The notes beneath the pieces were generated by a model. The model was not told the origin of the DNA, searched no databases, and was given only the letters and a program-made list of their open reading frames with translations. Positions 18,856 to 19,494 of a DNA stretch of 64,000 nucleotides are shown here, one piece after another. The translations under genes were made by a program, and so were the position numbers. The stretch's first letter is position 1. Every line of letters starts with the position of its first letter. The DNA lies in NCBI RefSeq assembly GCF_036507355.1, contig NZ_AP027877.1, one strand, 5' to 3'. The stretch is from Escherichia coli. GTDB lineage: Bacteria; Pseudomonadota; Gammaproteobacteria; Enterobacterales; Enterobacteriaceae.

Positions 18856-19293
18856 TTAAACCATCACCAGCGATAACTCTTTGCCAAGCGCCTTTGCCGC
18901 GAGCTGGACGGCGTCGATTTTTGTCGCATGATGCAAGTTAAATAGGCGAGTAATCTCCTGTTTAGGTTTGCCAATTCGCCTGGCTAACTCTTGCTGAGTG
19001 ATTTCTGACTGTAAAAAAGCATTTAACAGCAATACCTTAGAGGCGACGCTCAAAGGTACTTCAATAAAGTGATCATGACTATTTAATGGCGAAGGTAAAG
19101 GGATAAGCTCGTTATCTTCAAAATAAAAATCAAATGCGGTCAGTAAAGCATCTTTTGCCGCTTCCATCGCTTCAGCGACAGTTTCGCCCTGCGTCAACGC
19201 TTCAGGGATATCCACAAAAGAAACCATATAACCGCCTTCCGGCGCGGGTGTAAGAGTGACGGGATAACGCATAATTTCGACTGTCTCTCGCAT
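18856..19293 (-). CDS. hicB: HicB antitoxin (HicAB type II toxin-antitoxin)
   Basis: 145-aa ORF from ATG 19293 (AAGG about 9 nt upstream); alternative ATG at 19272 gives 138 aa MRYPVTLTPAPEGGYMVSFVDIPE...; C-terminal DNA-binding region. Confidence 0.8.
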   Translation of the reverse strand: MRETVEIMRYPVTLTPAPEGGYMVSFVDIPEALTQGETVAEAMEAAKDALLTAFDFYFEDNELIPLPSPLNSHDHFIEVPLSVASKVLLLNAFLQSEITQQELARRIGKPKQEITRLFNLHHATKIDAVQLAAKALGKELSLVMV

Positions 19294-19317
19294 GTCATTA
19301 ACCTTTTTAATTGGCGA

Positions 19318-19494
19318 TTAACTCAAACCGAGTTGTTTCAGGATTGCTTTACGCAATGGTTCTTTAATCTCATCGCAGGGGTGACGCGGCATGACACTGC
19401 GCCTCCCATGAAACCTGAGTTTCAAATGGTTGCTGCCATTCGCTACATCGACGCCCTGAGATTCGAGCCAACGTCTGAACTCGCTTTGTTTCAC
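19318..19494 (-). CDS. hicA: HicA mRNA-interferase toxin
   Basis: Hand-translated 58 aa from GTG: MKQSEFRRWLESQGVDVANGSNHLKLRFHGRRSVMPRHPCDEIKEPLRKAILKQLGLS; directly upstream of hicB. Confidence 0.75.
   Translation of the reverse strand: MKQSEFRRWLESQGVDVANGSNHLKLRFHGRRSVMPRHPCDEIKEPLRKAILKQLGLS

Follow-up and report, generated by a model that had tools for sequence, protein, structure and literature searches.

Two short reading frames lying one behind the other on the minus strand of an Escherichia coli chromosome, at positions 18856-19494 of the 64,000-nucleotide stretch of DNA analysed here (the window), raise the question of whether they make up a working toxin-antitoxin operon and, if so, which one. 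An earlier note had described a hicAB type II module at these positions without stating the strand, and the outer coordinates it gave coincide exactly with the stop codon of hicB and the start codon of hicA. The locus is almost certainly the canonical chromosomal hicAB type II toxin-antitoxin operon of E. coli, with the toxin gene first, in a strain other than K-12. As such it is already known: E. coli hicAB is a well-studied reference type II system, and the present copy brings nothing new. The evidence drawn from this DNA consists of gene integrity, protein identity, domain content, promoter-region identity, and genomic context, whereas the literature on the identical K-12 sequence is the source for RNase activity and neutralisation, for the Lon-dependent induction under starvation, and for the logic of the two promoters. 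The experimental results obtained in K-12 apply here because both the proteins and the promoter region are identical to those of K-12.

The hicA and hicB genes, their products and their chromosomal setting

The following features define the two genes.

19318..19494, minus strand: hicA coding sequence, mRNA interferase toxin HicA (GTG start 19494-19492, 58 codons, TAA stop 19320-19318)
19426..19428, minus strand: CAT codon of HicA His23, read from the sequence as residue 23 of the translation
19499..19505, minus strand: hicA Shine-Dalgarno sequence AGGGAGG, separated from the GTG by 4 nt; pairing energy with the 3' end of 16S rRNA -11.1 kcal/mol
18856..19272, minus strand: hicB coding sequence from the RefSeq start (ATG 19272-19270, 138 codons, TAA stop 18858-18856), antitoxin and transcriptional repressor HicB
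19273..19293, minus strand: in-frame upstream extension of hicB, 7 codons (MRETVEI), which gives a 145-aa reading frame; PDB entry 6U0I was made from the 145-aa form
19072..19266, minus strand: HicB_lk_antitox domain (Pfam PF15919, score 32.8 bits, cut-off 27; covering residues 10-74 in the 145-aa frame)
18871..19011, minus strand: HTH_3 domain of HicB (Pfam PF01381, score 31.4 bits, cut-off 23; covering residues 95-141)

The toxin gene is found as the earlier note had described it, as a 58-aa frame with a GTG start, running from 19494 to 19318 and closed by a TAA stop. The first further in-frame start after this GTG is Met35, according to both the list of open reading frames and the sequence itself. 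Of random 20-mers drawn from the window, only some 1% reach a duplex energy of -8 kcal/mol, against the -11.1 kcal/mol of the hicA Shine-Dalgarno sequence. All 58 residues of the protein match those of chain A in PDB entry 6HPB, 'mRNA interferase toxin HicA', and its gene is identical at the DNA level to b4532 of MG1655. The protein scores 30.9 bits with the Pfam profile HicA_toxin (PF07927, COG1724), for which the gathering score is 27, over residues 5-57 of the protein and positions 3-58 of the 58 in the profile. Because of the 100% identity with a solved chain (6HPB_A), the fold of this HicA is known experimentally. HicA is a small protein with a dsRNA-binding-domain (dsRBD) fold (PMC11594946, PMC10865869), and His23 is the sole known catalytic residue of the E. 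coli protein, covered by HicB in the complex (PMC8138530, PMC11594946). Ectopic E. coli HicA is bacteriostatic and strongly inhibits translation, its RNase activity having been shown experimentally (PMC11594946, citing Jorgensen 2009), and RNA degradation by HicA proteins is ribosome-independent (PMC11594946).

The antitoxin frame, read from its first ATG, extends over 145 uninterrupted codons (19293..18856). Both genes had been claimed to be uninterrupted, and re-translation revealed no frameshift or internal stop in either. The 145-aa translation is identical at 145 of 145 residues to 'Antitoxin HicB' of PDB entry 6U0I, a construct with a 3-residue tag, and its residues 8-145 are identical to the 138-aa HicB chains of 6HPB (6HPB_B) and 6HPC (138 of 138 residues). 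In the profile search for HicA and HicB domains that had been suggested as a check, HicA_toxin, HicB_lk_antitox, and HTH_3 each exceeded the gathering score. HicB thereby shows the two sequence hallmarks of its antitoxin family (PF15919, COG1598/4226), an N-terminal HicB-like domain and a C-terminal DNA-binding domain. A search of both proteins against the NCBIfam profiles returned no model match for either, which is a gap in that library and not counter-evidence. HicB is known as a fully folded protein, in which a partial RNase-H-like N-terminal domain is joined to a DNA-binding domain of the HTH type (PMC11594946); the N-terminal domain binds HicA and shields its active site (PMC8138530, PMC11594946). 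A structure of the HicA-HicB complex (6HPB) exists for the identical sequences. Since both products are 100% identical to crystallised HicA and HicB and pass the Pfam gathering scores, chance identity is excluded, and the assignment to hicAB, which in addition agrees with the RefSeq annotation of thousands of genomes, holds.

The one part of the earlier description that has to be amended is the extent of hicB. The reading frame stands, but its start is better read at 19272, giving 138 aa, than at 19293, giving 145 aa, in line with RefSeq and the distant homologues. The start at 19272 is the one used for b1438 of MG1655 (NP_415955.2) and in the PGAP annotations of other strains, and the Gerdes/Brodersen structures also begin HicB at this second ATG. 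Variation within E. coli is uninformative on this point, because five E. coli lineages, up to about 4% divergent, show no difference in either the 7-codon (21-nt) extension or any part of the hicA-hicB spacer. The Shine-Dalgarno energies are weak for both ATGs (-3.4 kcal/mol at a 7-nt spacing and -3.0 kcal/mol at a 13-nt spacing), and are equalled by about a third of random 20-mers. Outside E. coli, nearly all HicB homologues found by tblastn against plasmids align from query residue 7-10 onward. The hicAB genes of Arsenophonus nasoniae encode proteins of the same sizes, 58 and 138 aa, with a HicB that is 43% identical and whose coding sequence starts exactly at the equivalent of Met8; in Variovorax, stop codons shut the hicB frame one codon upstream of an M-F-S-Y-P start. 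The MRETVEI extension is conserved in the HicB of neither Arsenophonus, Variovorax, nor Piscirickettsia, and it lies outside the Pfam HicB domain, which starts at Tyr10. The conserved N-terminus of HicB is accordingly Met8. On these comparisons, the 138-aa HicB predicted from the start at 19272 is better supported as the product than the 145-aa form, although HicB may also be made as two isoforms, one from each of the in-frame ATGs (145 and 138 aa).

The gene order is the reversed one, with the toxin gene first: hicA lies immediately upstream of hicB, as the earlier note had it, and on the same strand. Its stop is separated by 24 nt from the ATG at 19293 and by 45 nt from the ATG at 19272. A promoter and terminator scan found no terminator-like site between hicA and hicB or after hicB, and read-through from hicAB into ydcR is possible because none was found after hicB. 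The closest known system is hicAB of E. coli K-12 (b4532/b1438; 6HPB, 6HPC, 6U0I), which is identical to the present one in its proteins, promoter region, gene order, and chromosomal site. Across 941 bp (18780-19720), the present DNA differs from MG1655, where the counterparts of hicA and hicB are b4532 and b1438, by only two substitutions, at 19192 and 19075, both synonymous and both in hicB; no base differs in hicA, in the spacer between the two genes, or anywhere in the intergenic region upstream. The order ydcR-hicB-hicA-yncJ-rlhA is the same in MG1655 and in other genomes. When the locus and its flanks were compared by megablast with 5426 complete E. coli genomes, the ydcR-hicB-hicA-yncJ context was found throughout the matches, and the RefSeq names in those genomes are 'type II toxin-antitoxin system mRNA interferase toxin HicA' and 'antitoxin HicB'. 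The GC content of the locus is about 44-46%, against about 52% in its flanks.

Two features of the neighbouring genes were also observed. On one side, yncJ (19716-19946, plus strand; DUF2554, 76 aa, with a signal-peptide-like N-terminus) is transcribed divergently from hicA, the two genes having in common the 221-bp intergenic region in which the hicAB promoters lie. On the other, the 78-nt spacer between hicB and the co-oriented ydcR contains two overlapping sigma-70-like sites (18801-18838, minus strand) and a short AT-rich inverted repeat, AGTTGT-N8-ACAACT, at about 18811-18830; these are probably the promoter and operator of ydcR.

Promoters, operator and the proposed circuit

The expression of E. 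coli hicAB is known to be under the control of two promoters, a scheme that has been demonstrated for this system alone among HicAB systems (PMC11594946). The upstream promoter, P1, is activated by CRP-Sxy via a CRP-S site and gives an mRNA that yields both proteins (PMC11594946, PMC8138530, PMC11951105). The operator hicO has been placed at the second promoter, P2, near the start of hicA (PMC11594946, PMC6957337). P2 is derepressed by an excess of HicA, and its shortened transcript leads to the production of HicB and not of HicA (PMC8138530, PMC11951105, PMC6957337). Starvation for amino acids and for carbon raises the transcription of hicAB, and this increase depends on Lon (PMC11594946). 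In the present DNA, the region upstream of hicA holds the following features.

19527..19544, no strand assigned: palindrome GTAAACA-N4-TGTTTAC, found by searching for inverted repeats (two arms of 7 nt, 100% complementary) and located 33-50 nt before the GTG of hicA
19513..19521, minus strand: extended -10 element TGaTATACT, from a relaxed sigma-70 scan, five bases downstream of the palindrome
19545..19715, minus strand: rest of the hicA-yncJ intergenic region, 100% identical to MG1655

The palindrome is invariant in five E. coli lineages and identical to that of K-12, and is likely to be the HicB operator hicO of P2, as judged from its sequence and position. The element TGaTATACT is the best sigma-70-like match on the minus strand, with 9 of 12 consensus positions when combined with TAAACA over a 19-nt spacer, and a TG at -15/-14; it was seen only in the relaxed scan, whereas the generic promoter scan, at its threshold, reported no sigma-70 site ahead of hicA. 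This element, read from 19521 to 19513, is a likely candidate for the -10 of the HicB-repressed promoter P2. The palindrome and the element both lie just ahead of the hicA Shine-Dalgarno sequence, in agreement with what has been published on P2 and hicO (PMC11594946, PMC8138530, PMC6957337). As to repression of the operon by its own antitoxin, a perfect palindrome is found adjoining an extended -10 in promoter DNA that is identical to that of K-12, where binding by HicB was shown (PMC11594946). A transcript beginning about 7 nt downstream of TGaTATACT would have its 5' end at or just before the hicA Shine-Dalgarno sequence, which would fit a leader too short for the translation of hicA. The contrast between the strong Shine-Dalgarno sequence of hicA (-11.1 kcal/mol) and the weak ones of hicB (about -3 kcal/mol) is in keeping with the published requirement for a separate transcript that supplies the antitoxin alone.

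The remaining part of the intergenic region, 19545-19715, must hold the Sxy/CRP-dependent promoter P1 and its CRP-S site because it is identical to K-12. A search of the whole window for TGCGA-N6-TCGCA with up to 2 mismatches, together with best-match scans of the hicA-yncJ intergenic region, gave no convincing CRP-S site; the best candidate of the scan, at 19651-19630, was rejected, as 8 of the 20 positions that the 22-mer specifies are mismatched. The hicAB locus is not mentioned in Cameron & Redfield 2006.

Taken with the K-12 literature, the locus would be expected to work as follows. Free HicA would cleave mRNAs by means of His23, independently of the ribosome, and bring translation and growth to a bacteriostatic stop. 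The N-terminal domain of HicB would neutralise the toxin by binding to it and covering its active site, while the C-terminal Xre-type HTH domain would bind the operator in the hicAB promoter region. The upstream promoter P1, activated by CRP-Sxy through CRP-S, would supply the mRNA for both HicA and HicB, and P2, located directly before hicA, would be repressed by HicB alone. An excess of HicA would free HicB from the operator, and the resulting short-leader transcript from P2 would be translated into HicB only, until the excess of antitoxin is restored.

Several other HicAB systems can be compared with this one. HicA3B3 from Yersinia pestis, HicAB from Burkholderia pseudomallei, and HicBA from Streptococcus pneumoniae are alike in having a HicA of dsRBD fold whose catalytic histidine is buried by the N-terminal domain of HicB, and in the repression of the promoter by HicB itself (PMC11594946). 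However, the HicB proteins of these three species carry a ribbon-helix-helix (RHH) domain and form tetramers or octamers, whereas the present HicB carries an Xre-type HTH domain. Beyond the family, mqsRA from E. coli, toxTA from Haemophilus influenzae, and higBA resemble hicAB in that the toxin gene comes first and an extra promoter gives the antitoxin without the toxin, and toxTA is likewise under CRP-S/Sxy regulation (PMC8138530, PMC6957337). Unlike hicAB, these systems have toxins of unrelated folds (RelE/ParE-like, several of them ribosome-dependent), and their sequences show no homology to HicA or HicB (PMC6957337).

Distribution, loss and biological role

The hicAB locus is not a fixed component of the E. 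coli chromosome. At least 80% of its 639 bp are present in 4253 of the 5426 complete genomes; it is only partial in about 1100 (about a fifth), and 77 have no match. The ST131-type strain CU568-3 (O25:H4) has a clean deletion of 444 bp, corresponding to 19095-19538 of the window, which removes hicA, half of the palindrome, and the 5' part of hicB that encodes the N-terminal half of the protein. What remains between ydcR and yncJ, both of them intact, is a 3' pseudogene of hicB. The same 239-bp remnant of hicB is found in two sampled genomes of the O25:H4/ST131 type. Strain 2024CK-00188 shows a second, independent route to the loss of the toxin: a frameshifting deletion of 22 bp in hicA (equivalent to about 19356-19377), with hicB intact, which leaves an orphan antitoxin and repressor. 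The frequency of such losses is what would lead one to ask whether the present copy, too, might be a decaying or silent remnant and no longer a working toxin-antitoxin pair. This is extremely improbable, as both reading frames are complete, neither protein differs at any residue from its functional K-12 counterpart, and the promoter region matches K-12 base for base.

The genes are essentially absent from true plasmids. Near-identical matches filed under plasmids were set aside, these records of 4.8-4.9 Mb being chromosomes filed as plasmids. The picture that results is that of an old, dispensable islet of the chromosome, which is intact in the present strain. The finding of an intact hicAB, identical to K-12 in its proteins and promoter, matters little beyond correct annotation, where the hicB start is to be read as 19272; the presence/absence polymorphism recalls, in a small way, that toxin-antitoxin modules of the chromosome are accessory genes which the cell can do without.

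What chromosomal hicAB does for the cell is still debated in the literature. One proposal would be that the real job of the module is not stress-induced growth control but anti-phage defence by abortive infection, in which HicA freed on infection degrades both phage and host mRNA. This proposal bears on the biological role only, the molecular mechanism being the same as that described above. A bioinformatic survey of 2024 argues for a general association of HicA-domain genes with defence (PMC10865869), homologues occur on plasmids and beside phage terminase genes, and the low GC content of the islet together with its presence/absence polymorphism is as expected for accessory defence genes. Against this, no experimental phage-defence phenotype was found for this E. 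coli locus in the publications consulted, no model in PADLOC-DB v2 matches HicA, and HicB is matched only marginally (E 0.002-0.009), over its HTH region. Moreover, the neighbours of the locus, namely ydcR, yncJ, rlhA, and the ydcSTUV transporter genes, are of a housekeeping type and do not form a defence island. A role in phage defence in place of growth control is, on balance, unlikely, and slightly less likely again is the version in which the islet is an abortive-infection module whose patchy distribution in E. coli reflects selection by phages and not neutral decay. The preferred reading remains that of the canonical hicAB toxin-antitoxin operon.

ortT, hokB and other features of the window

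The earlier note had also drawn attention to ortT and hokB, which together with hicAB make three toxin loci within about 25 kb. The stretch that begins with ortT and closes with hokB measures 25.2 kb, so the count and the span are both right. The additional loci are the following.

9897-10070, minus strand: ortT, Pfam Toxin_GhoT_OrtT, 96.9 bits
34963-35112, plus strand: hokB, HOK_GEF 83 bits, HokB of 49 aa, with an overlapping mokB-like reading frame
34817-34968: sok, of a hokB/mokB/sokB type I locus, Rfam 104.9 bits

The presence of all three toxin loci, intact, within 25.2 kb could be taken to mean that hicAB, ortT, and hokB form a functionally linked island whose co-location has been selected. 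Their placement was compared with a simulation, in which 35-45 loci (a number that is our own estimate for the toxin loci of K-12) were distributed randomly on a circle of 4.64 Mb; at least one such triple arose by chance with P = 0.38-0.63, that is, the observed clustering is no greater than random placement gives. The three are also of unrelated types (a type II protein pair, an orphan GhoT-like membrane toxin, and a type I hok/sok locus), they lie on different strands with some 20 unrelated metabolic and transport genes between them, and the deletion of hicA in ST131 with its flanks kept already suggests that they come and go independently. A selected toxin island is therefore very improbable; the idea was rejected on the simulation, and the clustering carries no statistical weight. 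As a separate observation, the gene for the RydC sRNA (35528-35591, 92.5 bits) is located about 400 bp downstream of the hokB locus.

Besides the toxin loci, differences between the window and strain TUM9757 were noted. Between yncL/ortT and the 3' end of patD, the present strain has an insertion of 1313 bp (10464-11776) with a low GC content (31-37%), which carries a reading frame on the minus strand (10759-11568) for a hexapeptide-repeat protein of 269 aa, named 'CatB-related O-acetyltransferase' in RefSeq elsewhere. This CatB-related islet is found in 1149 of the 5426 complete E. coli genomes, and an 11-bp stretch is common to both of its junctions. Conversely, TUM9757 has an element of 1.75 kb of the IS200/IS605 type (insQ/tnpB and a tnpA pseudogene) between ydcO and ydcL, where the window, at 23871/23872, is without it. 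Towards its far end, the window holds the gene for the MicC sRNA (63729-63849, minus strand, Rfam 125.3 bits). The distance between aldA and micC looks about 25 kb shorter than in K-12, and the present strain may therefore lack a block of genes, for example the paa/tynA/fea region.
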